DNA of 63,754 nucleotides, the filler included, from Reclinomonas americana ATCC 50394 (taxonomy: Eukaryota): NCBI GenBank assembly GCA_048213135.1. It is 4 parts of one record of this genome, joined end to end, with 100 filler letters (N's around TTAATTAATTAA, not from the genome) between each part and the next. Parts side by side here need not be neighbours in the genome. Positions count along the whole stretch, not along the records: positions 12,314 to 41,892 come from PS015036.1; 3 more parts are not named here. One strand, given 5' to 3'. Each line of letters starts with the position of its first letter. Within the stretch, counting starts at the first letter, position 1. Shown piece after piece: positions 12,214-49,266 of this stretch. Made by a program: the position numbers and the translations under genes. The notes under the pieces were generated by a model. It was not told where the DNA came from. It saw only the letters and a program-made list of their open reading frames with translations, and did not search any database.

Positions 12214-12257
12214 NNNNNNNNNNNNNNNNNNNNNNNNNNNNNNNNNNNNNNNNNNNN

Positions 12258-12269
12258 TTAATTAATTAA
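12258..12269. other. Artificial scaffold linker TTAATTAATTAA inside an N run
   Basis: Palindromic 12-mer with stops in all six frames, flanked by Ns. Identical at three places. Confidence 0.95.
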
Positions 12270-12346
12270 NNNNNNNNNNNNNNNNNNNNNNNNNNNNNNN
12301 NNNNNNNNNNNNNAGAGAGGGAGAGGGAGAGCATGGGGAGAGATAC

Positions 12347-18400: not shown

Positions 18401-21400
18401 CGTGCGCAACGGAGCCACGAATGAGACTGAAAGAAGTAAAGGACGGACCGAGCACTCAAAGCCGCCGACGGTGACCTTCTCGGACTCCGCGCGCTTGCAA
18501 ATGCCCAGCTGGCCGCACAGCTGCACATGCGCGAGTCAGTTTGTAAGAGCGTTAAAGGGACAGAAAGAAATCAAAGAGAATGCACGCACCGTAGCCGGCG
18601 GCTCCTTGTTGATCAGGCGCTGGATCAGAGCGGGGCCGACCTGCGCAATGACAGCGTCGCACACCTGCTCCAGGCTGGCCGGCAGGACCTTGCACACGTT
18701 CTCGACAAAGGTGACGCTGTGTGAATGGGGTCAGTTATCACGACAATCGGAAGGTATTTCGTCTTTCGTTACGCAACATCTCCTGCTCGGTGCGCTCCGA
18801 CTGAATGAACTGCTCAGCCAGGCTGCAAAATGATGAAAGAGAGTGAGTATGGAATCACCAAGCTTAGTTGTGTAAACCCATTCTCTCACCTCACAATGTA
18901 CTCGCAAGCGGCGCACTCAAAGCCGCCCAGGCGGGGGGTGGCGACCTCAGCGGCCTTGGGGCACAGCTTGATCTGGCCGCACAGCTGCAGCGAGGAGGAG
19001 GAGAAAGAAGGGGAAAGAGTGAGCTCACGAAACCGCCACACACACACAGCGAGCAGTTCCACACACCGTGGCCGGATCCTCCTTGTTCAGCAAAAAGTCC
19101 ACACTGCCACAATGGAAAAATAAACACCATGCTCACGCACACACATATCTGCATGTAATCGCACGCAACATGACGGGCGCGTAGGCATCAATGAAGGCAT
19201 CGCACTCGGTCTTCAGCTCTCCCGGCAGCAGGACGCACACAGACTCCACAAAGTGCGCAATCTCCTGCTCGGTGCGGTTCGACGCCATGAACTGCTCAGC
19301 AATGGCCGCAATGTACTCGCACGCCTGTGTCATAATTGCGAGGTGAGCGCGTGACAAAGAGCAGCATCGATACGACACCAGAGTTGCATCAACGAACCGC
19401 GCACTTCATGTCGCCCAACGGCTTGATGGTGGCCTGCGGGTTCGGGCACAGGTGGATCTTGGCGCAGGCAACGTTGCCCGGCAGCTGCATAGATTGCAGT
19501 CAGAACACACACACACACACACACACACNNNNNNNNNNNNNNNNNNNNNNNNNNNNNNNNNNNNNNNNNNNNNNNNNNNNNNNNNNNNNNNNNNNNNNNN
19601 NNNNNNNNNNNNNNNNNNNNNNNNNNNNNNNNNNNNNNNNNNNNNNNNNNNNNNNNNNNNNNNNNNNNNNNNNNNNNNNNNNNNNNNNNNNNNNNNNNNN
19701 NNNNNNNNNNNNNNNNNNNNNNNNNNNNNNNNNNNNNNNNNNNNNNNNNNNNNNNNNNNNNNNNNNNNNNNNNNNNNNNNNCACACACACACACACACAC
19801 ACACACACAGTGATGTCAAGAGAACATCACGCCACCACGCACCTTCTGCTGGATGACCTGGATCAGCAGCGGCAGGTAGTGGTTGACGGTGCTGGAGCAC
19901 ACGCCGCTCAGCCACGACGGAGCCTTGTTGCAGACGTCGTCGAGGGCGTTCTCGATCTCGGCCTCGGTGGCGTTCTGGCCGACCACCTGCTCGACCTCGT
20001 CGACAATGTACTTGCAAATGGCGCACTCGGCTGTGTTCTCCACCGCCGGGATCACGTCGACAGTCGCACGCATGCGCAGCGTCGGCGCACCCGCCGCCGC
20101 CACCATGGTGGTCGCGGTCATCGTGGAGCTCGTGGTGCTGCTGGACTTGCACAGACCAATCTCCTTGCAAATCTGCTGCGGCGACTGCTTCTGCAGCAGC
20201 AGCTGAATCTACAAAAGGCAAAGGTAGAGAGTGACGCGTGAGCAAATAGACAAAGTCACCACAGGGAGAGTGAGAGATGTGTACCAGCTGCGGCGTGTAG
20301 TCGTCAATGAGCTCGGTGCAGACGCCCTTGAGTGCCGACGGCAAGACACTGCACACCTGTGTGTCGAAGGATAAGATTCCGGGATCCCGTCAGTCAATAA
20401 ACATGAAGTAAAGGCGTCTCCCCAAGACACGCGCACGCACCTCGCCCAACACCTGCTCGATCTTGGCCTCGGTGTAGTTGCCGGCCAGCAGCTTCTCCAC
20501 CTCAGTCATGACAAGCTCGCACAGAGAGCACTCGAGGCCACCCTGCACAATCGTCTCCTCGTGCTGCTGCACGCGAGTGTACACCGTGACCGGCTGCTCC
20601 GACACCGTGATCTCCACATGAGAGCCCTGCACAGTCTCCGTCACAGTCACCAGCTCTGCACACACGCACAGACAAAGAGAGAGGCCGTTAATGGCGCGCC
20701 ATGTCGAGCACAGTTTTTTTCAGACGAGCACAAAAAGGACTCCACGCGCGCGCGTGTGCACAAGTGGACAGCGCACCACGCAGCACTGTGAGAGACGTCA
20801 CCTCCGTGCGAAGAGAGATGCCGTGACTCGAATATGCGGGGGTCGAAATGTCGTCGATCACACACTTGTGTCTCTCTCTGCGCTCTCTTCTCTCTTCTCA
20901 CTCACACACACACTCACCAGCAGGCGAGCTGTAGACGGCATCGGTGTTGACCGAGGAAGCAGCGCAACGGCGAATGGCGGTGCAGACGGTTTCGGGGGTT
21001 TCACGGGCGACGATGGCGTGCACGAGCGCGGGGGTCTCCGCATTTACGACTTGTGTGCAGAGCGCAGACAGAGTGCCCGGCAGTGCGGCGCATGCCTTGT
21101 GCAGCACAGCCTCCACCGCCTCCACTCCCGTCGTCGAGTCGACGAAATTCTCCGCTTCCGCCACCAGGAACTCACACTGTTGCGCGTGCACACACACAGA
21201 GTGAGCGACAGTGTGCGTGTGTGTGTGTGTGAGAGAGAGCAAGGTACGAGCGTCTGTGCGAGAAGTGGCACACACACGCGCCGCCATGTCTGATTCCTCT
21301 CTCTCTCAGCACTCACCAGCGCACACTCAGTGGCCTGTGTGGACGAGGGCGCTGCGCTTGCGACGCAGCTCAGTGCCAGCAGGCACGCAATGACGAGACA

Positions 21401-21468: not shown

Positions 21469-24400
21469 TCATGAAAACCGCGGCTTTCCCGGCGAAGGTT
21501 GTCGCGGTGGAGTGCGCGCCATGAGTCGCTGGAAAATGTCATCGGGGTTGCCACGACGAATACGCTGTGCGATGATCGTGTCGGCGAGGGCCTCTGGATG
21601 GATCGACGGGAGCACCCAGCTGCGTGGTCGCTCCTGCTCGGTCCACGTTGCGCTGAAGGATTGAGGTGGTGGTGCTGCAGGCAGAGGCATGGATGGAGGC
21701 GGTCCGCGAGGCGAGGTGTTGCCGCCCATGGAGCTGGCAAAGATGGCCGACGGGACGTGGTTGTCGTCGGCGTTGGCCATTGGAGGTGGCGAGACGGGCA
21801 CGAAGCGACGGAGAACGTCGCGTGGATGCATCATTGGGGCCTCGTCGTGCGCACCACCGCGAGCGGAGCGCATGAACATGGAGGGTGCGACGGCGGACTG
21901 GAAGCCGGGACGCGATGAGTCGTGCAGAATCGGCGTGTCGGCCCACGAGGGAGGCAGGAGCAGCGGGCGTCGAGGGTAGATGCGATCGCGCGAGAGAATG
22001 CTGCTGTCGCCGGCGGAGGGTGGTGGAGCTGCGGCCGTCGACGTGGGCAGGGCCATTGGTCGGCGAGAGTACGCGCGTTGGGCGTCTTCGGCGACGGAGG
22101 GGCGAGGAGAGTTCGGATCGCGTGGTGGCATGCCAGTGGAGGACAGCATCATGGGACGGCGAGAGTAATCGCGACCGTCGGTCAGCCGATCTGGAATGGA
22201 GTCAATGGCCGACTGCAGTGCCGCAATGGGGCTGGCGGGGAGTGGAGGCGGCGGCGTTGGCAGGGATGGCGGCGGCGGCGGCAGCGAGTGGTGCGCCGGT
22301 GGCGACGGATGATGCAGCGTGGTCGAGGCGGAGCCGGCGGTGTTGGAGAAGGAGGCGCCCGAGTAGGCGTCGCGCTGGCGAGCCACCGCAGTGGCCGCCA
22401 TTGACGCAAAGAATTGCGCCTTGCGCTGCGCTTCCAGTGCGCCACTCTGCTGCTGCTGCTGCGAGTGGTGTGCGCCAAAGCGCGGCGGCGACGGCGGCGA
22501 CGGCGGCGACTGCAGGCGTGCTGCGGTGGCGGCCGCATTTGCCGCAATCATGGCATCCTGATCGTCCTCCTCGGCCCCCTCAAAGCCCACCATGGCTTCG
22601 GCCACTGGCACCAGCGGCACACGAGAACGCCGATCGCGACGGGGATCAAACGGCTGCTCGTCGCTGTTACTGCCACGTGGAGAGAGAGCTCTCGGCGACG
22701 TGGCAGCCGACATGAGTGGTGACTGCAGGGCGGAGCCAGGCGCAGACAGCTGGCGTGGCGGCGTAGCATTCTGGTCGGCGTTGAAGCGACCACTTGTCGG
22801 TGACACCAGCAGCGAGTTGGCATTCAACGGCGCCAGCGCGAGTGCAGCCGACGCCTTGCCGGCACGATCTGAGCGACGACGCGCCAACAGATTGTCCACA
22901 GGCGTGAGACCCGCACCGCCACTGACACTTGAGCCGGCAGAGACGAGAGCAACACCAGCCGCAGGCGCCACGGCCACGGAGCGCGGCGACTGCGAGTCGT
23001 AACTGCCGTGGTCGTCCGCGGCCGCCGTGTACACCGGCTCCGGCTGCTCCATCTCCGTGTGCTGCCCGTATTCGTCGTCGTCGTCGTCATCGTCGTCGCC
23101 CTTGGGCGTCGACATGGTCCACGGGAGCAGACCTGTGGTCGACGAAACGGCGGCAGTGGCTCGCTGGCGCGGACTGCTGGCCGCGGCGGCGGCGGCCTCT
23201 TGGCGCGCCACCAGGTGCAGAATGTTGGCGGCCTGGGTGAGCGTGCGCGCCACGTGGTCGGGGCCGGCGGCACTGGCCACAGACATGTCGCGTCGTGCCG
23301 GCGTGGCGGCGCCAGGCGTCGTCGGCATGGAGAAGGCCTCGGCGACGAGTGGCGTCAATGAACCAGGCGTGTGCGCCGCAGAAACGGGTGCCGTGAAGCT
23401 GCCGGCGACAGCGGCAGCCATTCGCAGCATGCGCGGAGGAGGCTGCATGTCGGGCAGCGCCGGCAACGGCGGCGGGGGCGGTGGCGGCAGTGGAGTGTCC
23501 GTGGTGGCAAGCAGTGCAGGCGGCTCCGGTAACGCCTGCCCACCAGCTGTCATTGCACGTAGCGACGAAGCGCTGCTGGATGGCGAGCCAGAGGGCGACT
23601 GCAGTAGCGCCCGCCGATCATTGTCCAGCGACGCGTTGTTGTTGTTCGCACTGCCGGTCGACGACCTCGTGGATGAGGCGTTGGCAGAGGGCGGACGCGT
23701 GACGACCGGTGAGTTGGCCGTGGGTGACCAAGCGTCGACCGACTTGAGCTCCGGAGGCGAGAACATGAAGGGTGGCGGAGACAGGGCCATCGGTGAACTC
23801 AACAACTCCATTTCGCCCTGCATCAGTGGCTGCTCCTGCTTTGCTTGTTGACGGCGACGGCGGCGGCGACGAATGACCAGCACGACAATGAGGCCGGTGA
23901 CCAGCAACGCCAACAACACCAGGCCGCCAACAAGCAGGCCAATCGCCAGCGGGGACAGGCCGCTGCTCAGCGCCGATGCCACTGCGCGAGAGAGTGAACA
24001 CAAATTGGACGTGAGCAAATCAAACAAGCACTTCAGAGAAGGGGGGCGAGTGCGCGCGCACCATTGACACCCGTAATGGAATACACTTCGCTGTCGACAA
24101 ACACGGTCGGTGCACTGGCGTCCACCACGCGAGCCTGCAGAAGCANNNNNNNNNNNNNNNNNNNNNNNNNNNNNNNNNNNNNNNNNNNNNNNNNNNNNNN
24201 NNNNNNNNNNNNNNNNNNNNNNNNNNNNNNNNNNNNNNNNNNNNNNNNNNNNNNNNNNNNNNNNNNNNNNNNNNNNNNNNNNNNNNNNNNNNNNNNNNNN
24301 NNNNNNNNNNNNNNNNNNNNNNNNNNNNNNNNNGAAGAGGTGAATAAAAACTTCACACGCACACGAAAAAAAGTGCACACGACTCAAACCTGTAGCGAGC

Positions 24401-27400
24401 CAACGTCCGACAGCGGGAAGGAGTCGTCAAACTTCCATCGCACCACATTATTCGTCGCCGCGTCTCGTGTGGCGTCGTCGGTTCGCACTCGCGACAATAC
24501 TACAAACACACATCCTCGGTCAGTGCAACGGTTGCCAATGAGCAAAAATGTCAAAAACCACTCACGAGACAACGATGCGTCCTCGCTGCATCGACTGGTG
24601 GCATTGAAGGCGAGCAAGGTGTAGCCGTCCTCCGGCGAACCCCACACCGGCGAGTGCACACTTGTGCCAATGGCGGCCACGGATGGCGTGGGAAGTCGCA
24701 GTGGAGCGCCACGCTTGTCGAATGCACGCATAAACACGTGCACGGCGGTCATTGGTCGCCGATTGCAGTCCCACGACACCGACATGGTCTCCAGCGTCGA
24801 CAATCGGGGCGGAGGTGCCGCCGAGGTGACCGCCACGGCGGCCGCTGCGCATGGGAGGAAAGACATACCACGTCAGTCTCCATCATTTCGTCCTGTGTGT
24901 TTCCCTCCGAATTCCAACTCACAAGCCACGGTGAACACCGACGAAAAGCCGTAGATGCTCGTGTCGTTGGCCCAATCGACGCGAATCGAATATCCGGCAC
25001 TCGGCGACAGGTCAAATGGCACTGTCCAGCGGTACGAGTTGCGTCGGCCGCTCTCGACGTCAGTTCCGCACAACGAGCGCACAGTCGCCAACACCACGGG
25101 TGTCACTGGTGTGGCCACCGACGGCGGGTACAGCAAGACACGCGTGATGGAGGTGCTGTTGGAGTTGCAGCGCCACGTAATCTCGGCCAAGCCACCGACA
25201 TAGACCACGGCAGTGGTCTGGACCGTACCGACGGCGTTCGGGTCGTCCGTGGTGTGCGCCTCGGGCGTGTCCAGCGACCGCAGGCCAACATACGACATGA
25301 ATGGAGCTGCGCGCGCGTCAGCGAGTTAGTGTTGTCTGTGCGTGTGTACGACAAAGAATACCAAAGGCAACGTTACCGTGCACGGTGAAATTCTGACTGC
25401 GCGCATACAGGGTGGGCCTGTCGTCGTCGATGATGCTCATCACGTAGTCGTCGCCGGGGACGAGGCGCACGGGCACAATAAACGAGAGTGCACTCGGTTC
25501 CAGCGACGCACAATTGATGGCTTCGGTGCGCGAGCGCACTACCACCTCGGTGGCCGTCGGGGCGAGTACGATGCCACCGCGAGTGCGTGACAAGACGGCG
25601 CGCACCGCCGTGGTGGTCGGGTGGCGGCAGCCGAAAGTCACCGTGCCTGGCGAACCGCCCACCGCGCTCAACGAGGTGCCGCCCATGTTCAGGGCGACTG
25701 GGCCCACCGCCGACTCCACCACCGTAACGGTGGCCTTGGCGTCGTCGCTGCGCACCGACGGCACCGCCGAGTCCGACACACGAACTCGCACCGACACCGA
25801 AATCAGCGTGCGGTCGACTGACGGCACATGCCACACCACCACCGCCACGTTGCCGTTGCACGCAAAGGGCGCGTTCTTGGCAATGTCGATCACAGCGTCG
25901 CTGTTGGTGACGCTTGTCGCCGCGAGACCCGTGACATCCACAAACTGTATGTCGGGATTCGGGTTGCAGAAGAAGCGGAGAGAGACATCGGCGTCGGTGA
26001 AGTAGAGGCTGCCGTCAATGGGCTGCTTCTGACCGCTGAGGAATGTGTGCTGCAGAGTGACGGCTACGGCAACTGCCGGCGCCGAGTTCACGGCGCCGTT
26101 GGTGGCGTCGGAGATCTCCACCGAGAACACGTTGGACAAGGCCTGCGCATACGAGGCCAGCGGATCCCACTGCAGCGCCATCTCGTTCACCGTGGTGTTG
26201 TCGCACGTGGTGGTCATGGTGGTCGGATTCGACACATTGAAGCACTGCTTGCCGGCGCCGGTACCAGTGCACGCAGTAACCGAGGCCGCCGTTGTCACCG
26301 GAACCGAGCAGGTGAAGCGCAACGGGTACGAGTAGCCGTAGTAGACACCGCCGGCAACGGTGAGTGGGCTCGCCACAATCGCAAACGTGGGCACTGCAAG
26401 TGGTGGGGTGAGTGTCCGAAAGAGGGAGAGAAAAGTACTTGGTCGTTGTGTACGCACTGGTGACTTCAAACGCGGGACTGGAGAGCGCCGTGGCCGGCAT
26501 GGCGGCACCAGCAGACACATCAGTGACCTCAATGACAGCAGCAGCTGCGACGGCCGTCGACGGGAGCGCCGGCAACACGACGGTAGCCATCAGCGGAGTG
26601 CGCGAGGCGCTCAAACCACATGTGATGTCACCGAGAGCCGTCGTCACCGTGCCGACGTACACGCCGGGACTGAGAACGACGCGGGCGCGCACTTGCACAA
26701 TCAGCACGTCGTTACAGGCAAAGGAGACCGACAGCGAGTTGTTGACACCCGGCGACACTCGTGCCGCCGGTGTCACACCGCGGAAGGTGGCAACCACCGA
26801 CGTGATCTCACTCCCTGCACAACAGCAGCAATGATAGATGGATGAGTGGCGATTGTGCATCAAGGACACCATACAACACACACCGTGTACATCAATCGTG
26901 CTGGTGCTCACGAACGGCCCGATACGACTCTCGTCGGCGTCCGACACGCGGAGCACCACCGGTCCTGCTCCAATGAGGGAGGCCGGTGGTGTCCAGGCCA
27001 CAGCAGTGGTGCTGACAGAACCGCGTGTCATATTGCAAGCCACGGCGCGGCTGTTGCTGATGGTGTAGAGGCTGGTCGCGGGATTCGCCGCAGTCACCAC
27101 CGCCAGCATGACCTGCCAACAAGAACGAATGAGGACAACGCGGCAGCTGCTGCAGCGCACAGCGATATATGGAACCAACCTGTGCGGTGGAGCCGCCACA
27201 CGAGACGGTGAGGCTTGTGGGAAGGCCGGCCAGCAAGTGGCCGCTCGGATTCGGTGCGACAGAGAGCACCGGAATGGCGACAGTCACAGCGGTCGAGTCG
27301 GCGTACACGGCCGTCGCATTGGCGTCCTCCACCCGGATAATGACGCTGACGGGCCACGTGCTCTGCGCCGTCACCGGTACCGCCACCGACAGCATCGGGT

Positions 27401-30400
27401 TGCCGAGGGGACAGGCGATCAGCGCAGCGTTGATAACCACAGGAGTCATCAGCTCCTCAAAGTAGGTGGCACCCAGTGCACGCACTCTGCGCAATGCGAC
27501 GCCAGTTGAGGACGAATGTCAACATAAAAAACAAGTGCGTCGAACAGGCACAAACCGCAGGGCAGTGACGGCCGAGTTGCTGGTGCACATGATGCGCGCC
27601 ACGTAGGCGACGCCCGCAGGCACCACCGTAGCCGGTGTGGCCGACATGGAGGTGGGAAGCATCACCGGCGCAGTGACCGTCGCTTTTTGTATGGAGGAGG
27701 GTAAGTGAATTTTTCAGTGCATGCCACATAGCAGAGTTGCGTGTCGCGCAAACCTGCCAGTCCAAAAGAGAGGACAGACGACGACACGGCTGAGTGAACC
27801 AGGCGGAGTGTGTAGGCAGTCGCCAGGTTGTAATTCGGAGGACCGCTGACCGGCACCGTAAACACAAACGTCTCCGTGGCGCCACCGGTACACACGGCGG
27901 TGACAGCCTGCGTCGTGACTGTGGTCACCGGTGCGGCCGTCTCCACCGTCAACGTCAACGGTGACACAGGCACTGGCACGAGGCACGTGAAGCGCACGGT
28001 GTACGAGTAGCCCGGATAGAGCGTTGGCGGGAGGTCAGCCGCAGTCACGGACACCGCAGGTGCTGATTGTCGAGAATAAAAGATGAGTGTCGTGGAGCAC
28101 AAAACTCACAAGACAACAACCAGCGCAAACCTTGCACAGTGAACGCTGTAGAACAGGCGTTGATCGACACATTGTCGCTGTCACGCACACACAGCTGCAC
28201 GCTGGTTGAGCTGGTCCACGCCGAGAGCAGTGTGACGGTCTGCGTGCCCGCAGACACAGCCGGCACGCGAGAGGCCAACACGCTCAGCGCAGCATTGTTG
28301 CGCACGACGTAAACGTCCACAGCCGTGATGACCGAGGCCAGATTCGCAGTCCATGTGACCGTGGCGACTGTGCCGGTCAGCGGTGGTGACGGGCCGGCGA
28401 CGAAACTCGCCAACACGTTGCTGATGCCCGGGGCTGTGTGATGTCGATGAACAAGAAGAAAAAGAAAGTCATGTGAGCAATGGAGCAAAGTAGCCGTCAC
28501 GTCAAAGTCGGTACGCACTGGTGACGGAGAACCACGAGCTGTTTCCTGTGGCGGATCGGGTGCTGGCATTCTCGACAAAGAGTCGGTAGGTGCCAGTCGA
28601 CGGCACCAGCATGTTCACGGTGAGCTGGTTGAAGAAGCCACCGACAGCGCATTGTACGGCTTGCGTACTGGCCACGGTCAACACCTCGGACAGCGACGAG
28701 CCTTGTTGCAGCACATTGACCTGCGCGGTGGTGGTGAGTGAGCATGTGCGAGGCGGCACAGCAGTTATTGGCCATGGAGCGAACCTGCGTAATTGTCGGG
28801 TTGTTGCACACAAACGAGATGCGAGTCGGCACCGAATACTGAGCCAGTGAGACGGCATCCGTCCAAGAACCCGCTCCAATCTGGTACTGCAAGCCGGCGG
28901 TCTCTCCACAGCTGTCGAGACAAAACACACACAGGGATGAGGGCAAGGCTTGCGAGTCGCACGACGACGGGAGCAGAGAACGGCGCCGAACCAGTCATCG
29001 AATGAGAACAGAATGGCGCTGCAGAAAATATAAAGAGTGAGCACAAAGCGAGTGCCGCAACACAACGGATTTTGCTATTAACAAAACACACCGATGACTT
29101 CCCGCAGTGAGAGCGATACTACCCGAGAGGGCGTTCGCCCAATTGCCGCTCCAGTCTGCGGCAGCTGTGCCAGTGGCCACCACCGTCGTGTCCACTTGAA
29201 TCTGAAGATTATGCGTGCCGGGTGTGAGTCAAGGGCACGCATCACAATAAACTCGCGGTGTCTCACGCAACTCGTGAGCCCCATCCGTTGCCGGAGCCCC
29301 AGCGGAACGTGTACGTCGCGGCAGTGGGTACCACAAAGTTAATCGTCACTCTGTACGCTAGTGCATTTCCTGGCGATGCGCCGCACAGCGTGGCGGCAGG
29401 CATGCTCGTGAGTTGCGTGATGGTTGACATGGTCGCCGTGCACGATTTCACCTGCAGAGACGAGACGACACCCTCACTGTCAGCAGATGATGGTAGCGAG
29501 GAGATGGTGCGCCATCAATGAGACACACGCGCACCGAATCAAAGTACGTGTTGAGGTTGGCCAGCGAGTCGGTGATCAGCGGCTGCATCGTGCCGTTGCC
29601 CGCCTCCACCGTGATGCCGGTGAGCGAGAGGCGGCCGGTCTGCAGCACAGTGGTCGACGCCAGTTGCATGTCTGCGCGTGAACATGAAGACACAATGAGC
29701 GAGGAGCACGAATGGGCTCGGAGGCGCCGGCACGCACCTGACACGTCGAACGTGGTGCCAGTGGTGGTTGCCGTCGAGTTGTCAAGAACCAGCTTCAGTC
29801 GGTAGGTTGCACCCGTGTGCACGGAAACGTCGGTACCGACCAGCCAGGCGAGCGTGTTTGTTGCGACACCGTCGCAGACAGAAGGCACGCCGCTGCGAAT
29901 GACCAGCGACCAGCCCGCCGTGGCGTCGTCAGTAATGGAAATGGACACGGGAGCGGTGGCAGTCGGCTGAGCGACACACGTCCACGTCAGTGTGTACGAC
30001 TCGAGACGGAAGATGACCGACGGCAGCGCAGCGGAGGTCAGAGTGACGGATTCTGAGCACCAAAAGCAACTGGGTCAGCGCACGAAAAACGCAAAGTGGT
30101 TTCCAGCTTGACGATGCCTACCAATCGACAATGGCACGAGCGACGAGAACGGGTCCGTGGCGGTGAGGCGGAAACACAGCTGATACTGGCCGGTGCTGAG
30201 AGCGCCCACCGTCGCCGCCAGTGTCACCGACAGCTGTGAGAGGTCGGCAGAGAGTGTAGATGCTGTCACAGCCACTCCCATGCCGGTGTTGCAGCTGGCG
30301 GCCAAAAACATGTCGGCAGTCGCCGGCGCAGTGGTGAAGCCACCAACCGGGATCGTCATGGACACATTCACAGTGCCAACGGGCACTGATGCTGGCACCG

Positions 30401-33400
30401 GCGGTCCAGATGCGCCGACTGCACGCGCGCAGCGGTGGTGAGAACTTGCCTCTCAATTTTTCTTGCGTCACAGCATGCAACACGTACCGACAGAAATCGT
30501 TGCCTCGGGGAACACCGTGCCACCGGTCGCCCACTGCGCGCACACCGTAAACGAACCGGGACCACTTAGCTTTGTGTTGTACGCCACGTCGACTGTGTCG
30601 GCAGTGGCATTGTCTGCAGTCGAGAGGGGCGCCATAACACTGCCGGCGCACGTGGGTGACGACGACAGCGAGTAGATTGCCGCGCCGCCCAACATCGTCC
30701 GCGAGCCAGTGGGCGCCAGCGACAACGACAGCGTTTGCGATGCCGACGTGACCGACACTTGCGGAGACACGGTGGCGATCGAAGCTGTCGCGAAGCGAGG
30801 ATGCGGGAATGAGTCCTCTAATGCAGGGAAGGAGAAGGCGACGATGTATATACCTGCCAATATCGACACGGATGGCACAAGGGCCGCAACCTGTCCACTC
30901 GTCCAACGGGCGCACAACTGCAACCAATGGTAATCAATGAAAGCAACTACGGAGGGAATGAGATAGAGAGCGAGGGCCAAACACGCAACGCTGTAGATGG
31001 CTGGCAACAGTGCGGAAGCCGGGGTTGGATTGATGGCCAGACGCATCTCCGTAGAAGAGATCCACGTGGGTGCCACTTGGACATTGGCAGTCGCCGAGGC
31101 ACAGGAGCCAGTTGAGGAGATGAAGAAGGTTGCGCCAGAGGAGGGGAACGAACGACCGGCCATGGTGATCACTTGACCAGCAGTGGCGGCGTTGATTGTA
31201 GCCGGCGACAAGGAGGTGACGGTGGCGAGGAGCGTAATGTAGCGCACACGAGGACCGTCGCCCACCAGCACATTGTTGCCCAACAAGTCGACTGCAGACG
31301 GCGACGTAAATGTTGCCACAGCTAGCGCCTCGCCATTTGAGGCACCCGCAACTCCAGTGCCAGCAAAGTCACTCACGTAGCCTGTGTACGAACACAAAAA
31401 AAGCCGAGGTGAGTGAATCGGAGAACCGGCATGCGCGCAGAACTGGACACGTCCCGCCGCTCACCGTCTGTGGCCACGCGTCGTACGCGACGGAGCGCCT
31501 GCTGAGAGACCACGGCAAACGAGTCGGTATCGACAGCAATGCCCCACGGTGCGGAGGCCAGAGTGGCAATGGTGGCCACCGCCCCCGTGGAGATGGTCAC
31601 TTGCAGAATGCGCGAGTTGCCGCTGTCGGCCACATATACGTACAAGCCATTGCTGCTGACAGAGAGCGAGAGAGGGGTGGTGAACTCGCCGCCGGAGCCG
31701 GCCAACACGCCCTGGCTCACACCACCCGAGTCCACTTGCGTAAGCGTGGTGCCCGTCGACACAACATACGTGGTCGACGTGAGCGCCACATCACTCAGTG
31801 CGTTCGGGTTGGCCGTGTACAGAACCGTTTTCACGCCTGTTTCGCGACGCGCATGAGATACCACTACGACAACACTAACTGTCTGCAAACTCACCAGTGG
31901 ACGGCACGACGCGGACGAGCTGATTGGCGCCGCGGTCGGCCACCAGCAGCGTTCCGTCACTCAGCACCGCGATTCCGTACGGATTGGTGAGAGCCGGTGC
32001 CACGTTGATTGTGCTCACTTGCATGTCGTCTGCGCAAGGAATTGCAATGAGTGTCACATGACAGTTCCAGTCGCGCCACGTGATGGAGCACTGTTACGCA
32101 CTGCTGCCAGGCACAAACGCGATGCGACGAATGGTGTTGTTGCTTCCACCGTCGCTGACGTACGCCGTAAAGTTGGCAGCGGTGTTGTCAATGGCAACGC
32201 CCTGCACCGTGTCGAAGCGCGACGACAAGGCCGACCCGTCCAGCAAGCCAACCGTGCCGGTGCCGGCAATGGTCAGCACAGTGAACTCGACTACAATCAC
32301 TCTCGAGTCAGCTACTGCGAAGAAAATCGGTGGAGAGCTTCGACACAGGTGCCACTCACCAAAGCTCACAGTGCCCGTCCGTGACGCTGTTGTTTGACTG
32401 GTGTTCCACAGCACGCACAGGCCAAATGGAGCCAGCGCAACTCCAGTGCCGTCCACGGTCAGCGACACGCTCGACGATGTGGCGCTCGCTGCTGTGGCAA
32501 CGGTGGTAAGGGCGCCCGTCGACGAGCACCCGCTGGTTCCGGTGGCAAGGAACACGGAGGTGGGCGACCCCAGACCAGCGCCATCCAGGAATACACGCTG
32601 CTGCGTGCGGTACAACTGCGACGGCCGAATGGTGCTGACCGAGGCCAAACTGATGGTGACTCCCACAATGGCGTACGAGGCCGTCGGATCGGGACGCATG
32701 AGAACGGTGTAGATTCCGGCCTGCACCGTGGCGGTGTTCCACGTGAGAGTGAAGGGCAGCGGGTCGGTCGAGGTGGCCGACGTTCGCGTCGTCGCCGTCA
32801 TGATAGCATCGGTGGCAATCACGGGGAACGCCGTGGAGCACGCAGATACACACAAAATGACACCGGTGGTGGTGTCGGAGGCGGCCAGCGTCGGCAAGTT
32901 GACGCCGCGGAGTTCGACCGCAAATGTGCCCTGCTCCCAGGGCAGCACGGCCGGGAACACGGAGGTGACCGAGGCCACACTCACCGGACCAAAGTCGGTG
33001 TAGGCCGACGTTGTGGACCAGCGCACGCAAACGCGGTACGTGACGGCCGTGTTGAGACTGGCAAACAAACAGTGAGCACACCAGTCCGACGAGCGAGAGA
33101 GCAAATCGGCACACACACACAACGCAACGTCGAGCCGTCAACGATAAATGTCGCACTGATCGGTGACGCGATAGTGATGGAGGTGACAGCGGCGGAGGAG
33201 GCCAGTGTGTTGCAGTTGGCCGCCATCACAATGGCCGATGCATCGCCGGTCACATCGGTGAATCCCGCACCGTCGAGCGACTGTTGCGAAAAAGTGAGTT
33301 TGAGTGGTGCGCGAGATCACCACGCAGCAGCAAAACAAAAGACGCACAATCTTTTGGCTGGCGAGTTGGAAAATGATGCTCGGCACAATGCGCGTCACCG

Positions 33401-36400
33401 TCGGCACAGTGGTGATGCGTCGAATCAAATGGGACGAAAAGTCGGCGACAAACAGGTCACCGCTGGTGTTATCAAAGGCGATGCCGTTGGGCAGCGAGAA
33501 ACGAGCCTGCGGCGGGGGATGTGGTGAGCACCGCAAGAGAGAGCGGAAGACGAGACACACACAGACGCAACTGGAGAGCGAGCGGCGCCGTTCGTGTTGC
33601 CAGTGGATCCGGTTCCGGCCCAGCGAACTGCAACAAGAAGGAGGGTGTCAGCGTGAACGTGTGTACATCACGCAACAAGAGGAGCATGTACACCCGCACC
33701 GACAAAGCCTGTGCGATGCAAACAACAATATCAGTACGGGTATGAAGAGTGCAATGAAGACACACGACACACACATACCATCAACGGTCGATGCACGTCG
33801 CACCACAGGTGTTGTGGTGTCACTGTAGTGGGAGGAGGGCGTGTCAGGGGCAATGACAGTGCGTGTCATTGACAAAGGAGAGAGCGAACAGACGCAACGT
33901 GAAAAAGATGCTGGTCGACGAGTCCGCAAACACCACCGAATTCGGTGCATTCAGCGGCACATTTGCGATCGCTCCTTCAGACACCGTAGGAGCCTGCTCA
34001 AGCATGTCAGTGGGTGCGCACACACACAGCGGAGAGAGAGAGAGAGAGTGAATCGCATGCTCGTACCGTGGAGAATCCCACCAGTGTCGTCACAGCATAC
34101 GCTGCACGAGAGTGTCAGCAGAGAACAACATGGAGCACGGGACGATTGGCGGACGAAACGTGCAGTCAACGACACTTGGCGAATGCGCCCGTTGCCGGTG
34201 TCGGCCACCAACACTGCAGTGCTCACTCCAGATCCGTTGCGCAGCAGTGAGAGCGAAGTCGGCGACGAGAATGACGCGGAAGTGCCGTTGCCGTTGGTCG
34301 ACCCGGCCAAACCGGTGCCCGCGAGCGTGGCGACTGCAGTGACGGACGAGAATGGGTGTGAGTGACGAATTACAGGATGCTCACTCGGCGCACGTGACGC
34401 ACCAGTGCTGCCAGTCAATGTCCGCACGGCATGGTTGGCAGTGTCACAAATGTACAATGTTCCACCGGCATCAAAGGCGAGACCGCCGACTGAACCAAAC
34501 GTGGCCGAGGCCGTCTGTTGCAAAGCGAGAGTGGGCATGTTGCCAAACAACAACACTTTGACACACGACACAATCAAAGAAACATATGTCGCGAACCGAG
34601 CCGTTGACAAAGCCGGCAGAAAGGCCGCCGGCCGCCGTGGCCACACCGGTTGCGGCGTTGACGGTGCGCAGACGGAAACCGTCGCCGACCCACAAGACTC
34701 CAGTTGTGGGATGACGCGCCAAGCCGCGTGGACTGACAAAGCGGGCCAGCAGTGGGTTGGCCGAGTCCAGGTAGCCGGGAACGCCCGTGCTGCACCACAC
34801 ATGCGCCGTAAGCACACAAGTAGCGGCATCGAATATCTCTCTCTCTCACACACACACATGTACTCACCCAGCAACGGTCGACACGACACCGGCGGTGGTC
34901 ACGCGGCGAATTGCACCATTACCAGTATCCTGAGCGAAAATGTGAGGGCGGTGAACCGAATTACGAGCTCTCTCCATAAAACCATGCACGAACCGCGACG
35001 AGCAGCGAGCCGTCCGCCTCCAGTGCCACCTGCGTGGGATTGGTGAACTTGCCCGGACTGCCGTCCGCGAAGCCCGACGTGCTACCAGCGTACGTCACCA
35101 CCGACGGAACGACTGTCGACACGACAGAGAGAAAAGGAAGTGAGAACATTGAAAGGTGTCTGTGGAGTACACCAGCACCCACCAATGGTGACTTGCCCGA
35201 CGGCCTGGTACGTGTCCGAGTCGTAGAATCGCGTGCACACAGTGTACGTGGTGCCGAGGGTCACCGACGATGCGTCAATCACCATGCGGACGCTGCTGTT
35301 GGAGTCCAACAGGTACTGTGTCACCGTCAGGCCGGCCTGAGTGGCGGCCAGCGCACAAGTGGTGCCGCGCGACACAACCAGCTGCTGGCCACTGAGCGCC
35401 GCCGACGACAGTTGAAGCAAACTGAGGCCGGCGAGAGTGAGCACTTGGAATGGAGCCGCGCTGATGACGCTCGGCGCCACACTTTGCACCACCGGCACTG
35501 CAGGGCACGAGGTCAGAGTCCACACAACGTGCCATGCACAGGAAAGCAGGGTGTACGAACCTGAGGCGCAGCAGAGCTTCGAGTTGGTGAAGAGCGGGAT
35601 ATTGCGGTACGTCGTCCCCGACTTGTCAAAGTCAATCACCGAGAACGTGGTCACGGTGACGTCGGCCGCTGCGAGAGAATGAAGGAGTGTGGCGTGAGTA
35701 ACACTGGTACTTTTGCAGGCAGGCGCAAGGGCCCACGTACCAACAACGCCAGTCCACGAATACGCAAAGCAAATGTTGCTCGAGGCCAGTGTCATCGGGC
35801 CAATGATGGCTCCATCTGTGCAAGCGCCACTCCAGTTGTACGATGTGGTCGCCGTGGCTGGCGACGTAGAGAACTATATGAGTGATTGTGCGCCGTGAGG
35901 AAAAACCTGACTGGCTCATGACACGCACCTGAGCTTGTCGTGCCAGTGTACACTCCCGGCTCACTGGAGTTGTCGTCGACCACAATATACGGTCCATTGC
36001 CACCATTGGCGGTGAGCGGAAATGAGCCGGTAGTCGAGGTGGCTGTCACCTTGACATTTAGAAAGTTGCCCTGCGCGCACAGAACACGTTTGTGGGCAAG
36101 AGATGCTTCTGGATAGCGGCAGTGACAGTGATGGCAGCAGTGGAACGCACCGTTGTCGGTCCCACCACCGCCGCATAGTTGTTGGCATTGTTGCTGGTGA
36201 TGACGTAGTACGAGATGTACGAATTGGAGCGCTCGTAGCCGGGATAGACGCCGCAACCCGTGTCGTTGATGTGCTGAGTAGCAGTCCGTGTTGGCTCTCG
36301 CAGAGGTCTGATGGGCAGCGAACTGGCCAGGCCCGTGTACGACATGGTGCAGCAGTACATGACGGCGGGCGACAGGTTCGACATGTACACGCAACCGGCC

Positions 36401-37625
36401 GGCTCGTTGACTGCGCCGCGCGAGTATGAGACGAGGGAGAGGGAGAAGAGATAAGGAAAGACGAATGAAGACAAGCAGGCGCACCGTACGAGATCGGAAA
36501 GGGCGACGAGTACGTGAGACCGGTGGGATCGGTGACGGTGATGGTCAGCGAGCGATTGCCGGTGGTCGTACTGCTGAGCAACACCAACTGCTTCGACGCA
36601 TTGACGGAGAACAGAGCTGCGTCGGCGCCCGACAGACTGTACGTGAAGACCGTGTCGTCAATGTTTGCATCGTAGGCCGACAGCTGGCCCACAATGAGGC
36701 TCGCCGACGAGTACGTCGACGAACTCAGGTAGATGGCCGACGGCGCCACATTCACTGTCGAGCGACGACAACAGAGATCAGTGGAAAAGGGAAGACAGTC
36801 GCCATCATGCAGTCACTCACCGGCATTGATGGTAAATGTGCGCTCGACGAATGCCCCATACGCATCTGTGGCACGGACAGTGACCGACTGATTGGTGCTG
36901 CGGTAGCCAGGGTTGATAATCGTCAGCGAGTCGGGCGACGTCCCCACCCCGAAATCGGCCGTGTTGGTGGTGACAGTCCACGTCAGCGTGTCGCCCGGAT
37001 CGGTGGCCGTCAGCAACCCCACGACGACGTTGGCCGCCAGTGTTGGCGGTGTGTAGGTGGTGGCCGACAGCTGAATGTTGGTCGGCGCCGTATTCACTGA
37101 TGCGGGCAAGAGGAGTGAGTGTGGAGCGAGCAGGGCCAGGCTCATTCTTGTCCCCTCTACACACACACATACCACCGGTGATGGTAAACGCTTGCTCAAT
37201 GTAGTTGCCCGAGGTGTCGGTGGCACGCACAGTGACAGTGAGCGACACCGCCGTGACGCCATTTTGCGACATGGAGAGCGTGGTGCCCGAGATGGAGAAC
37301 GACGCAAAGTCGCCGGTGGACTGCAGAGTGAATGTGACAGAGTCACCAACGTCGGGGTCCACTGCCGACAGCGTGCCAATCACGATGGGCGCGCCGGACG
37401 AGGGCATCGGGTACGTGTTGGCCGATAGTGCGATGGATGTGGGTGGTGTGTTGCCTGCAAGAAGGGGGGTGAGAGGGGAAGAGGGGAAGGGGGGAATAGG
37501 GAGAGAAGAAGTGAGGGAGGAGGGAGGTGGGAGAGGGAGGGGAGAGAAGAGAGGAGAGAGAAGGGGAGGAGAGGGAGTAGAGAAGGAAAAAGAGATCGAG
37601 TGGGAGGTGAAGAGAATGAGAGTGA

Positions 37626-37663
<38 letters not shown>

Positions 37664-38139
37664 AAGGCAGCGGTAAGGAAGGAAGAAATAAGGAAGCGTG
37701 GCGGAGGAGAGATGCAAATGGAGTGGGAGGTGAAGAAAGAGAGAGAAGATGGAAGAGAGGAGACAGAAGAGAGCGTATGTGTGTGTGCGAGGAAGAGAGA
37801 GGGGTAACAGGGAAAGAAGGGACAGAGGACTAAAGTAGGAGAAGGTTCAGGTGCGATAATGCACGACTGTCGATCCACTCCTACTCAGTCCTCCCTCCCG
37901 TCTTCACATGCATCGTAACCGTCTGCTACTTAATTCTTGACACTTACACACATTCTCTCTCCCTTGCTGTGCACACTGCTTTCCCTAGAGACAGAGAGAG
38001 GGCGAGAGAAATTGTGTGTGGGAAGTGGCGGGAGACGAGAGTGGAATAGATTATTGCGCACCACACATACGCACAGATAGAGCGAGAGCGCGCGCGCGAG
38101 AGAGAGAATGTGGTGGAGGATGAGCGGGAAAGAAAAGCT

Positions 38140-38181
<42 letters not shown>

Positions 38182-40108
38182 ACTCTCTCTCTCTCTCTCT
38201 CTCTCTGTCAAGCATTTACAGCGATGAGGGTGCACATTACACAGAATCAGTGCCCTTGATAGTAACCACCTCGAGATCGGCGCCCCCACATTCTCTCTGG
38301 CTTGTGGACGGGAACAGAGGAAATCTCTCTCTCTCTCCCTCTTCCCCACTGTCTCGATTTCCCTTTCCCTCTCCACCCCCCTCAACCACATCTCACACAC
38401 AAACCTGTTGCACAACAGACAACACCGTTGGGGGTGTACGCTCCAGGCGCACCGGACGCTGAGTTGACGGCGTAGTTGATGCGACCCCAGCCAGTTCCGG
38501 CGCAGGAATTCACACCAGCCTGAGCGGTGAAGCACTGATTTCCTATACCGCCAATGTCATTAGCACTGCTGCTGGAGAAGTTCAGCGTGACACATGTGTT
38601 GCCGTCCTGTGCTGCTCGCATTGCAAAGCAGCCGGGGACATCATTGGAGGCTGTGGCATATGGTACAGCGGCAATCACAGCGGTGTCGGCAGGCAGACAA
38701 ACAGCGTATTTGATACTGTGGCGGCACAGTTGTTCAGCAACGATGTTAACCAACGAACGGCGGCGTGCTTGTACGCAACTTGTTACAAAGGGCCTGCGCA
38801 GCTGCGTCGGTGATGGCTACCCACGTTCCACGGCACAGCGCAACAGTGCCAGCCGCGTTGGCAAACGTGTAATCGGGCACGGCTTGTGAACCACAGGCTG
38901 TTTTGCCACAACCACCACATGTGTGAGTGTGAGCGAGTGGGAATCGCAGAAGTAAAGGGAACTCACCAGTAGTTGGTGCTGATCCGCGAGCGTCGCACTG
39001 CGGGTGCGCGATGCATGTCAGTAGGACTAAGGAATGAGGGCAAAAGGAGAGCACACGGACGCACCCAGGTGTATGTCAGCTCCACATAATCGATCGCTGT
39101 GTCGTCGGCGATCAAGACATCAACCTGTCGAAGCGAAAATCAGCAACTGAATCAGGTAGAAGTGGACGAGGAGCAGAGAGAAGGGAAATGCATTCACGCG
39201 GGAACAGAAAAAGGAAAGATGGGCGACGAGAGTTAAGAGAGAGAGAGAGGAGAGAGAGGGAGGGAGAGAGAGAGAGAGAGAGAGAGACAAGAATCGAGAC
39301 CATCGGATTGTAGAGACACGGAAACACGAGGAAACGGGAAGAGCAGAGGTGGATGAAGAGAGTTGAGAGCAGGAATCGAGACCATTGGATTGTAGAGACA
39401 CGGAAACACGAGGGAACGAGACAGGCGAAATGAACTGAGACAAGGACTGGCAAGACTCGAGACCTGATCGCGTGTATAAAAGAGAGGCGAACGTACGAGA
39501 AAACAGGAAAAGGAGAGATGCAGAAGGCACGACTTGAGACTGCATGAAAGAAAGAGCAAGCCAGAGACACAGCAGCACACGCAACTCGCAAGTTGGTGTT
39601 GATCAGCGCCACCAGACCAGCGACAGTCGACAAATCCGCCACAAACAAGAAGCCCGACGGATACGTGGTCTTTGACCAGCCGGTCGCCTGCGCCGCGATA
39701 CTCTGCTCAAAGTACGAAGTCCACGTGGTGCCCGACGAGTGAATGCCGGCGCGCACAGTGTCATTGTCGGGATTGTCGGTGCTGCCAAAGCCCTTGACCA
39801 GCGTGCGCACAGTCGCCGCCACAATGCCACTCTGCAGACCGGTGAACGTCGTCACAAAGTTGGCGTTGATCGTCGTCAGGTCGTCAAAGTTCTTGCGGGT
39901 GGAGTACCCGGCGATCAGTGCCGCGGAAGGTGAGGCCACCTCTGTACAAGGGGAAGGAGAGTGAGTGAGTGAGGGAGGGAAAAGAGGGGTGAAGGAGGAT
40001 AGGGGAGAGTGGGTGAGTGAGGGAGAGGGTGAGTGAGTGAGTGAGTGAGTGAGTGAGTGAGTGAGTGTGTGAGTGTGTGAGTGAGTGTGTGTGTGTGTGA
40101 GTGAGTGA

Positions 40109-40183
<75 letters not shown>

Positions 40184-40806
40184 GNNNNNNNNNNNNNNNN
40201 NNNNNNNNNNNNNNNNNNNNNNNNNNNNNNNNNNNNNNNNNNNNNNNNNNNNNNNNNNNNNNNNNNNNNNNNNNNNNNNNNNNNNNNNNNNNNNNNNNNN
40301 NNNNNNNNNNNNNNNNNNNNNNNNNNNNNNNNNNNNNNNNNNNNNNNNNNNNNNNNNNNNNNNNNNNNNNNNNNNNNNNNNNNNNNNNNNNNNNNNNNNN
40401 NNNNNNNNNNNNNNNNNNNNNNNNNNNNNNNNNNNNNNNNNNNNNNNNNNNNNNNNNNNNNNNNNNNNNNNNNNNNNNNNNNNNNNNNNNNNNNNNNNNN
40501 NNNNNNNNNNNNNNNNNNNNNNNNNNNNNNNNNNNNNNNNNNNNNNNNNNNTGTTTGCGTGTGGTGGTGAGACACGCCCAATATAGAGAAAGTAGACATT
40601 GCTCTCTCTCTCCTCCTCCTCCTCCTTCTCTCTCTCTCTCTCTCATGTGCCCACTGACCACTGGGAGCGGCAAAGTTGTCTTTGAGGCCCTGCAACACCA
40701 CTGTGGTGTAGCAGGCCGACATGGCGGCGTGAGGGAGCACCACCATCGCCAACATCGCCACCACGAGGCATGACACGAGCGCACTGTGTAATGATGACAC
40801 GCGCAT
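21469..40806 (-). CDS. Giant type I membrane adhesion/receptor-like protein (cadherin-like x3, NHL repeats, Ig/TIG-like modules, PA14-like domain, TM, ~800 aa Pro-rich tail)
   Basis: Signal peptide at ATG 40806, then an unbroken series of same-strand Thr/Val/Ser-rich exons. TM LAIGLLVGGLVLLALLVTGLIVVLVI followed by RRRRRRR at ~23870-23945. A single gene is inferred, not proven. Confidence 0.7.
31230..35125 (-). other. NHL-repeat beta-propeller regions within the giant receptor
   Basis: Repeats such as VATLAGTGLAGSTNGNGTSASFSSPTSL, FGSVGGLAFDAGGTLYICDTANHAVR, ARFSLPNGIAFDNTSGDLFVADFSSHLIRRI and YVYVADSGNSRILQV. Confidence 0.85.
36486..37455 (-). other. Three cadherin-like repeats, one per exon
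   Basis: NTPPTSIALS...IGTLSAVDPDVGDSVTFTL...VTVRATDTSG; NTAPTNIQLS...VGLLTATDPGDTLTW...VTVRATDAYG; NVAPSAIYLS...VGQLSAYDANIDD.VFTYSL...ITVTDPTG. Confidence 0.8.
39291..39412. repeat. Intronic direct repeat (~41 bp x2)
   Basis: gaatcgagaccat(c/t)ggattgtagagacacggaaacacgagg at 39291 and 39373. Confidence 0.75.
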
Positions 40807-41826: not shown

Positions 41827-41936
41827 TGAGTTTCCGAACCCACACGAACATGCGCTACGTGCACCTCTTCCTTCTCCTTCTCTCTCTCTCTCNNNNNNNN
41901 NNNNNNNNNNNNNNNNNNNNNNNNNNNNNNNNNNNN

Positions 41937-41948
41937 TTAATTAATTAA
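41937..41948. other. Artificial scaffold linker TTAATTAATTAA
   Basis: Same N-flanked six-frame-stop linker. Confidence 0.95.
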
Positions 41949-42283
41949 NNNNNNNNNNNNNNNNNNNNNNNNNNNNNNNNNNNNNNNNNNNNGAAAGAGA
42001 AGAAGAAGGGAGGAGGCGGTGATGGTGGAGGCAAGCGAGGTGGAGGAGGAGGGGGACGCGAGTGAGTCTTGTGACAGTCGATACTTACTCGTCATTCATG
42101 TTGTCTGATTTCCGCCCTTGCATGCAAGTCGATCTCGCTCGCCACGTGCCTCCGATCCGTCTGGTTCCTCCGACCCGCTGCGTGAGAGTCCGGGGTGAGT
42201 GCTCTTGGCCTCAGTGAGTTGTGCACAGTGATGCTGACCGTGTTCCGCGTTTTTGTATGTATGTCGCTCTCACCATTTTTCAG

Positions 42284-48998: not shown

Positions 48999-49045
48999 GT
49001 GNNNNNNNNNNNNNNNNNNNNNNNNNNNNNNNNNNNNNNNNNNNN

Positions 49046-49057
49046 TTAATTAATTAA
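49046..49057. other. Artificial scaffold linker TTAATTAATTAA
   Basis: Same N-flanked linker. Confidence 0.95.
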
Positions 49058-49266
49058 NNNNNNNNNNNNNNNNNNNNNNNNNNNNNNNNNNNNNNNNNNN
49101 NCCCCAAATCACCATGCGAGAGAGAGAAAGAGAAAGAGGTGAAGGGGAAGGAGGGAGAAGGAGGGAGAAGGAGAGGGAAGGGAGGGAGGAGAAGGAGAGA
49201 AGAGAGAGGGCAGAGAGTGAATGTGTTGCAGTATTAGACGAGAATGCAGTGTGTGCGTCGTGTGCG

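Follow-up and report, generated by a model that had tools for sequence, protein, structure and literature searches.

Cadherin-fold repeats of bacterial sequence type, each on its own exon, in a predicted giant membrane protein of Reclinomonas americana

Cadherin adhesion is usually framed as a story of animals and choanoflagellates, and the related repeats of bacteria are treated apart from it. A locus of the eukaryote Reclinomonas americana ATCC 50394 (assembly GCA_048213135.1) lets one ask how exon duplication absorbs bacterial surface modules into eukaryotic receptors. In a 63,754-nucleotide (nt) stretch of DNA from this genome (the window, to whose positions all coordinates refer) an initial annotation had described a giant receptor gene with bacterial-style cadherin repeats and NHL propellers, and had proposed that bacterial modules were domesticated there by exon shuffling. 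The features that it listed, from signal peptide to cytoplasmic tail, are all present where it had placed them, on the minus strand. We show here that the three repeats are cadherin-superfamily domains of bacterial sequence type, corresponding to the ~95-amino-acid (aa) tandem repeat of giant bacterial adhesins. They stand in a eukaryotic single-pass protein, on their own phase-1 exons and with host codon usage. On balance we favor the reading that the locus is one real intron-rich eukaryotic gene encoding a giant type I membrane protein that most probably serves as a surface adhesion or ligand-recognition receptor. The gene and its repeats are located as follows.

21469..40806, minus strand: whole receptor gene, from the ATG at 40806 to the stop at 21469, with ~39-49 exons and ~4,300-4,400 aa in dynamic-programming gene models
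37173..37454, minus strand: first cadherin-fold repeat (repeat 1), of bacterial type, alone on a 282-nt exon with a phase-1 intron on either side; the bacterial-repeat profile described below gives it 95.3 bits
36821..37096, minus strand: second cadherin-fold repeat (repeat 2), alone on a 276-nt exon, likewise phase-1/phase-1; 78.1 bits against the same profile
36485..36754, minus strand: third cadherin-fold repeat (repeat 3), alone on a 270-nt exon, likewise phase-1/phase-1; 60.8 bits against the same profile

The fold of the repeats is that of the cadherin superfamily. An AlphaFold2 (AF2) model of repeat 1 is a seven-strand sandwich with a predicted local distance difference test (pLDDT) score of 90, and the top rows of a Foldseek search with this model against the PDB are extracellular cadherin (EC) domains (T-cadherin, CDH23 and PCDH15) together with SraP modules, at E 5e-3 and template-modeling (TM) scores of 0.6-0.73. 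The seven-strand Greek-key sandwich of repeat 1 and the presence of three tandem copies place the repeats in the superfamily at the level of fold. A profile made from 14 bacterial repeats and the three window repeats (profile A3) leads to the same families by sequence: it has 165 matches at E ≤ 0.1 among PDB sequences, and all 60 of the rows shown are cadherins or protocadherins, with CELSR1 first at 3e-37. At the level of single Pfam families the picture is different from that of an animal cadherin, since none of the three window repeats gets a Pfam Cadherin (PF00028) row at E < 5. Big_9 (PF17963) aligns over nearly its whole model, and in repeat 2 over positions 1-89 of 89, with sub-threshold scores of 17.9, 16.6 and 21.8 bits for repeats 1-3 against a cut-off of 23.6. 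Rows from NCBIfam were rejected, as they scored 14-17 bits against cut-offs of 175-204, or 14.7 against 90 for the tandem-95 family.

The sequence relatives of the repeats are giant adhesins. A profile of the three window repeats alone (profile A1), searched against 1.84 billion representative proteins, matches 10,082 proteins when E ≤ 1e-3 is allowed; tightening the limit to 1e-10 leaves 3,683 of them, and 826 remain at 1e-30. The best 150 of these 10,082 matches are giant proteins with 5-56 matched stretches each, and every one of the 150 uses the bacterial linker N[ED]xP; summed over them, N[ED]xP occurs 1,749 times and the animal linker DxNDNxP twice, and 52 of the 150 contain GGxGxD. A Pfam scan of 15 of the best 150 found Cadherin in all 15, Cadherin_4 in 13, RTX repeats in four, C-terminal signals of the type IX secretion system (T9SS) in two and SLH in one. 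Bacterial secretion or anchor domains (RTX, T9SS or SLH) are thus present in seven of the 15 scanned proteins, and a eukaryote-only domain in none. Conversely, a bacterial-repeat profile built from 2,306 domain instances in the best A1 matches covers the window repeats over their full length (profile positions 1-91), with the scores listed above, which are inflated because these domains were selected with the window's own profile. It finds no further copy in a six-frame translation of the window.

Named prokaryotic relatives were found by tblastn against one genome per prokaryotic species. This search returned 21 loci whose identity to repeat 1 is 32-50%; Pirellula and other Planctomycetota, cyanobacteria, Verrucomicrobiota and Pseudomonadota carry them, and the 50% is that of a Pirellula repeat. 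Of 81 Planctomycetota genomes sampled, 10 have matches. One of these, a Pirellula genome, has 39 matches in uninterrupted 300-nt tandem arrays inside single open reading frames (ORFs), some of them longer than 11,000 aa; at G001:C173:60331-63312 ten consecutive 300-nt copies share one open frame. The view that the repeats are far nearer to bacterial adhesins than to animal cadherins therefore holds up, on the linkers of the matched proteins, the 61-95 bits from the bacterial-repeat profile, the 50% identity to Pirellula and the sub-threshold Big_9 rows.

The repeats share with those of giant bacterial adhesins (Pfam Cadherin, Cadherin_4 and Big_9; RTX-, T9SS- or SLH-bearing) a length of ~90-95 aa, the tandem order and a series of motifs, namely the NxAPTxIxLS start, VVGxLSAxDPDxGD, F.I, TVRATDxxG and FTI. 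They differ in number, there being three in the receptor, each a separate exon, against the 5-56 copies of the matched proteins, and in context, since they lie in a eukaryotic type I protein with NHL domains, IPT-like modules and a cytoplasmic tail, and with no RTX, T9SS or SLH parts. They also differ at the calcium sites. A column-by-column alignment with the bacterial consensus shows that NxAPTxIxLS, VVGxLSAxDPDxGD, TVRATDxxG and FTI are kept, while the acidic linker residue (the linker E), the E-N pair and the D[FY]E triplet, all positions of Ca2+ ligands, are lost. DPDxGD, a DxD-like stretch, is complete only in repeat 1 (DPDVGD), and ATD is retained. The linkers read G-NTPP, G-VNTAP and A-VNVAP, so that N and P are kept and the acidic residues are replaced in all three; neither the bacterial N[ED]xP linker nor the acidic ligands of E-N and D[FY]E are found in any of the repeats.

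Metazoan-type cadherins bind Ca2+ through PE, LDRE, DxNDN and DxD motifs; in the window repeats the alignment contains no equivalent of LDRE and DxNDN, or of D[FY]E. Bacterial cadherin-like domains (CHDL) already lack LDRE and DxND, according to one report (PMC2926784), and the window copies are more degenerate at the Ca2+ sites than these. Because most ligand positions have gone from all three repeats, their Ca2+ dependence is predicted to be weak or absent. Repeats with such degenerate sites would act as Ca2+-independent spacers or binding modules, and the locus lets one ask whether cadherin-fold repeats work without most of their Ca2+ ligands. With metazoan and choanoflagellate cadherins and protocadherins the receptor has in common the fold, the superfamily (through the profile link), tandem extracellular repeats and a single membrane pass. 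It differs from animal cadherins in the missing Pfam Cadherin row and LDRE/DxNDN motifs, and from classical cadherins in having no catenin-binding or other known tail domain by Pfam in its 837-aa last exon.

The exon structure of the repeats is regular. Each repeat exon is a multiple of 3 nt, and the flanking introns are in phase 1 and interrupt the same codon position, just before the conserved N; the three repeats are 33-41% identical to one another. Phase-1 introns typically flank extracellular modules that exon shuffling has spread. The layout of a single repeat on each exon, with symmetrical phase-1 borders, agrees with exon duplication or shuffling, as the initial annotation had supposed.

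The high identity to planctomycete repeats, and the N runs within the gene, might raise the suspicion that the repeats stem from bacterial contamination or a chimeric assembly. We regard this as extremely improbable. The repeats are carried by three separate exons with canonical short introns, in frame with flanking eukaryotic exons, whereas the bacterial repeats form uninterrupted 300-nt arrays in one ORF. In addition, the GC content at third codon positions (GC3) of the repeat exons is 0.76-0.83, and GC3 and codon scores match those of the remainder of the gene, with the repeat exons left out of the codon training set of the gene model. Host-like codon usage and introns together lead us to exclude contamination and argue against a recent transfer.

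The gene models from which these exons are taken were obtained by splice-aware dynamic programming trained on the codon usage and splice sites of this locus. The models share the ATG at 40806 and the stop at 21469; model 1 comprises 39 exons that encode 4,328 aa, and model 2 comprises 49 that encode 4,426 aa. Of the 38 introns in model 1, 31 are 48-102 nt long with GTGCGT/GTGAGT...CAG ends, and 22 of these 31 short introns, gene-wide, are in phase 1. The seven long ones contain N runs, microsatellites or small exons recovered by model 2. Two N runs lie inside the gene, at 40185-40551 (367 N) and 24146-24333, and may conceal exons. The models are approximate, and doubt attaches to several tiny exons of model 2. 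Two in-frame introns have probably gone unrecognized within exon 30488-31381: at 30792-30986 two hydrophobic stretches break otherwise regular modules and look like such introns, so that the true protein is probably slightly shorter there.

The weakest joints of a single-gene model are two gaps near the 5′ end, 39942-40658 (717 nt, including the 367-N run) and 37455-38404 (950 nt), which are about ten times the usual intron length. The locus might accordingly be divided into more than one gene; for instance, 40806 to ~38405 might encode a small secreted N-terminal protein, with a separate receptor beside it whose first exon has not been seen. We think such a division unlikely. The ORF of repeat 1 has a good acceptor site, and upstream of the repeat it shows no in-frame ATG as far back as the preceding stop; its exon must therefore be spliced to upstream sequence. 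Between 37454 and 21469 the reading frame runs on without a break, and none of the gaps leaves room for a promoter. Microsatellites of GA, TC and CA, not coding sequence, occupy the 950-nt gap. Both long 5′ introns are packed with microsatellites of these three kinds, and repeat expansion may explain their ~10-fold length.

How bacterial-type repeats came into this gene is harder to establish. A 17-row domain tree places the three window repeats, in unresolved order, outside a 13-row bacterial cluster (support 89/95). Monophyly of the window repeats is not rejected (approximately unbiased test, p-AU 0.30), and the tree names no donor. The data fit one old acquisition followed by exon triplication. 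One bacterial-type repeat would have entered the lineage long ago, its codon usage would since have turned host-like, and it would now lie between spliceosomal introns; the acquired repeat would then have been triplicated as a phase-1/phase-1 exon.

An old module of other protists fits almost equally well. By this account of vertical inheritance the cadherin module of 'bacterial' type is old and widespread in little-sampled protists, and sampling and conservation, not transfer, account for its resemblance to bacterial repeats. The position of the window repeats outside the bacterial cluster, the lack of a donor, the fully host-like codon usage and the introns exactly at domain borders all suit it. 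So does the scope of the searches, as the taxon-named searches with the repeats covered prokaryotes only, and the best-150 listing favors many-repeat proteins. Several observations nevertheless make vertical inheritance the less probable account, though a possible one. The animal linker is almost absent from the best 150 of the 10,082 matches (2 occurrences of DxNDNxP against 1,749 of N[ED]xP), bacterial secretion or anchor domains occur in seven of the 15 scanned proteins and eukaryote-only domains in none, and the 50% identity shared with a planctomycete repeat is high if the domain split before eukaryotes arose. Moreover, cadherins are reported as absent outside metazoans, choanoflagellates and oomycetes in the report cited above (PMC2926784). 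Of the proposed domestication of bacterial modules by exon shuffling, the exon structure agrees with the shuffling, and the preference for transfer over inheritance is not borne out by a tree without a donor.

Several points weigh against the reading that we favor, besides the inflated scores of the bacterial-repeat profile. Given the prokaryotic scope of the taxon-named searches and the bias of the best 150 toward many-repeat proteins, a bacterial origin and an old protist domain are not told apart. Repeat 1 is as close to the Pirellula repeat (50%) as it is to repeat 2 (41-47%), which also fits the acquisition of an array whose members had already diverged. The two long 5′ gaps do not resemble the remaining introns, and exons or a gene boundary could hide in them. 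The single-transcript model is drawn from sequence alone, and the receptor function is deduced from the architecture. No orthologue or paralogue of the lineage-specific parts was found among proteins of up to 4,180 aa, the models themselves being longer than 4,300 aa.

The favored single-gene model gives the following order of domains: signal peptide, two head regions, three cadherin-fold repeats, an NHL propeller followed by IPT/TIG-like modules, a second such unit, a long Ig-like stalk, a transmembrane helix and a disordered Pro-rich tail. The parts between the repeats and the stalk are as follows.

35741..36410, minus strand: Cys-rich region after the repeats, three exons, no family found (no Pfam match)
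35183..35497, minus strand: IPT/TIG-like module with two conserved Cys, one exon (AF2 pLDDT 82.7)
33348..35112, minus strand: NHL beta-propeller region 1 (Pfam NHL above cut-off; five blades scored by a self-profile)
32360..33280, minus strand: about three IPT/TIG-like Cys modules between the propellers (alignment A2; weak internal similarity)
31230..32314, minus strand: NHL beta-propeller region 2 (Pfam NHL above cut-off; four strong blades and one weak by the self-profile)
30122..31226, minus strand: IPT/TIG-like modules after propeller 2 (alignment A2; sub-threshold Pfam TIG in the first module)

In four ORFs of the gene Pfam NHL (PF01436) exceeds its cut-off of 20 bits, with 22.9-30.1 bits, and it does so also in five exon pieces. 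The self-profile was built from the gene's own NHL blades. Blade-like ORF pieces are also present in the poorly modeled gaps, and the sixth blade of region 1 likely lies in poorly modeled small exons; we infer two six-bladed propellers. Searched against the PDB, one NHL exon from region 2 finds the designed protein Pizza6 (1.7e-15), PknD of Mycobacterium tuberculosis (7.2e-12) and TRIM3 (1.6e-8), with TRIM3, Thin and TRIM71 all at ~1e-8. PknD at 49 bits is only slightly above TRIM3 at 38 bits, and on these sequence matches the PDB relatives do not decide between a bacterial and a eukaryotic affinity. The bacterial style that had been claimed for both modules is borne out for the cadherin repeats, while the NHL matches favor neither side.

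We also considered a transfer of cadherin and NHL modules en bloc. The NHL exon has no match in five bacterial genomes that contain relatives of the repeats. The NHL family occurs in all five of them, at other places and mostly in open frames of ~330-450 aa (up to ~800 aa), and no bacterial protein joining these repeats with NHL was found in the five genomes. The unmatched NHL exon and the separate position of the NHL frames leave the en-bloc transfer unsupported.

The modules that accompany the propellers are ~100 aa long, have two Cys, and stand before propeller 1 and behind both propellers. The best Foldseek rows for the module at 35183-35497 are the IPT domains of MET, EBF and plexin (E ~7e-3, TM score 0.5-0.6). 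Pfam TIG reaches 16.4 bits, against a cut-off of 20.9, in the first module after propeller 2. Alignment A2, assembled by hand, comprises eleven of these modules, six from the receptor and five from another gene of the window. The latter, at 57411-60763 on the minus strand, is a multi-exon gene with tandem ~100-aa two-Cys IPT/TIG-like modules as in the receptor; the similarity between the two sets is weak but reciprocal, and this gene matches no family in Pfam. The shared modules point to a local family of surface proteins assembled from the two-Cys module.

The N-terminal head, the stalk and the C-terminal part of the protein comprise the following.

40659..40806, minus strand: exon 1, with the start codon and a hydrophobic, signal-peptide-like N-terminus (translation, read by eye)
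39583..39941, minus strand: N-terminal region 1, ~100-120 aa, no family found (Pfam, PDB-sequence and ESM Atlas searches)
38405..38897, minus strand: N-terminal region 2, Cys-rich, no family found (Pfam and PDB-sequence searches)
24062..30052, minus strand: long stalk of weakly related beta modules of ~90-110 aa (internal repeats), interrupted by the N run at 24146-24333
23872..23958, minus strand: single transmembrane helix (translation), with RRRRRRR directly after it
21469..23871, minus strand: cytoplasmic tail of 800 aa (translation)

The signal-peptide-like start, judged by eye from the translation, reads MRVSSLHSALVSCLVVAMLAMVVLPHAAMSA. N-terminal region 1 (exon 39583-39939) has no match in Pfam or among PDB sequences, and its best ESM Atlas score is 0.86, under the 0.9 level used for leads. 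N-terminal region 2 (exon 38406-38714) has no Pfam match and a single, chance-level row among PDB sequences (E 0.22). In the stalk, the module on exon 24924-25304 belongs to the Kre9/KNH-like family (PF10342), with 29.3-30 bits against the Pfam cut-off of 24.6; a second module has 15.8 bits, under that cut-off. ESM Atlas offers only Ig-like or Kre9-like leads for the stalk (He_PIG and Ig_SIBA-type Ig-like clusters) at ~0.8, all below 0.9. A 343-aa exon scores at most 0.86 there (leads only), finds nothing or chance rows among PDB sequences, has no homologue at E ≤ 1e-3 among proteins of 602-2,000 aa, and remained without a relative in a metagenome scan.

The seven Arg residues that follow the transmembrane helix make the protein type I by the positive-inside rule. 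The tail beyond them consists of 15.1% P, 15.4% A and 12.6% S and holds three poly-Pro tracts and a D8 acid patch. It contains the motif YSRRP at 22153-22167 and 22057-22071 and YPRRP at 21964-21978, spaced 31-32 aa apart. The 837-aa last exon has no Pfam family and no homologue at E ≤ 1e-3 among proteins of 459-1,463 aa and 1,464-4,180 aa.

Taken as a receptor, the protein would bind ligand through its head and its two propeller-plus-IPT units, which are arranged like the Sema-IPT parts of plexin and MET. The stalk would hold these binding modules far from the membrane, and the tail, by its poly-Pro tracts and Y[SP]RRP motifs, would recruit cytoskeletal or endocytic adaptors. Some properties would also suit a structural protein of the surface coat or matrix, that is, a glycocalyx or wall anchor that senses no ligand and whose tail merely anchors it. 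The ectodomain is rich in Ser, Thr and Ala (11.6, 13 and 12.6%) and has 33 N-glycosylation sequons, the family of the Kre9/KNH-like module is named after yeast wall proteins, and the same Cys modules in the gene at 57411-60763 suggest a coat protein family. We hold a coat role to be rather unlikely all the same, as an 800-aa tail with repeated short motifs and poly-Pro exceeds what anchoring needs, and two membrane-distal propellers are typical binding modules.

A more specific version of the receptor reading is highly speculative and, in our estimation, very improbable. A bacterivorous protist would have put a bacterial adhesin repeat at the tip of a phagocytic receptor, where it would bind like repeats or glycan ligands on the prey; the propellers would serve as co-receptors, and the Y[SP]RRP/poly-Pro tail would trigger engulfment. 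If this were true, prey would be caught through the bacteria's own adhesion module.

Several known systems resemble the proposed receptor in part. Plexins, semaphorin receptors and MET likewise have single-pass ectodomains in which a propeller is followed by IPT/TIG-like sandwiches. Their Sema propeller has seven blades and the NHL propeller a predicted six, and the receptor is without the PSI, kinase or GAP domains of plexin and MET, so the likeness is architectural only. Teneurins provide a precedent for a bacterial module in an adhesion receptor, as an NHL-bearing bacterial protein was taken into the choanoflagellate-animal lineage and reused there, according to a preprint (bioRxiv 10.1101/2025.11.11.687626). 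To this precedent may be added the predicted six-bladed NHL propeller and weak TEN_NHL rows. These rows reach 10-17.1 bits, far below the cut-off of 27.1; none of the teneurin YD shell, FN-plug, RHS and toxin domains is found by Pfam in the scanned exons and ORFs, and the receptor is type I, teneurins type II. Bacterial surface modules have reportedly also been reused in eukaryotic adhesion by diatom trail proteins. With teneurins and these proteins as precedents, the value of the locus lies in its particular architecture and clean exon structure, and not in a new principle.

Dictyostelium SibA has repeats of bacterial type. Like the receptor, it is a large single-pass adhesion protein of a unicellular eukaryote, and one source (PMC10880500) describes it as a protist type I adhesion receptor that binds talin. 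We would call SibA a functional analogue, with no sequence relationship shown; the receptor differs from it in having no VWA domain and no NPxY tail motifs. A limited literature search found no published account of a protist protein with cadherin-like and NHL domains together.

The rest of the window is eukaryotic in content, with long ORFs for a PAE/Notum-like esterase, a saposin, a WD40 protein, DUF3228 and an SPB4-type helicase. A saposin-B-type gene (SapB_1, SapB_2) at 19819-21305 on the minus strand lies directly downstream of the receptor stop codon. At 43810-47304 on the plus strand there is an uninterrupted ORF of 1,165 aa with pentapeptide repeats (~residues 396-427) and many WD40 repeats, which is free of introns amid an intron-rich region. 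At each of 12214-12313, 41893-41992 and 49002-49101 the window contains two runs of exactly 44 N, 12 bases apart, which look like masking or scaffolding and are unlike ordinary gaps.

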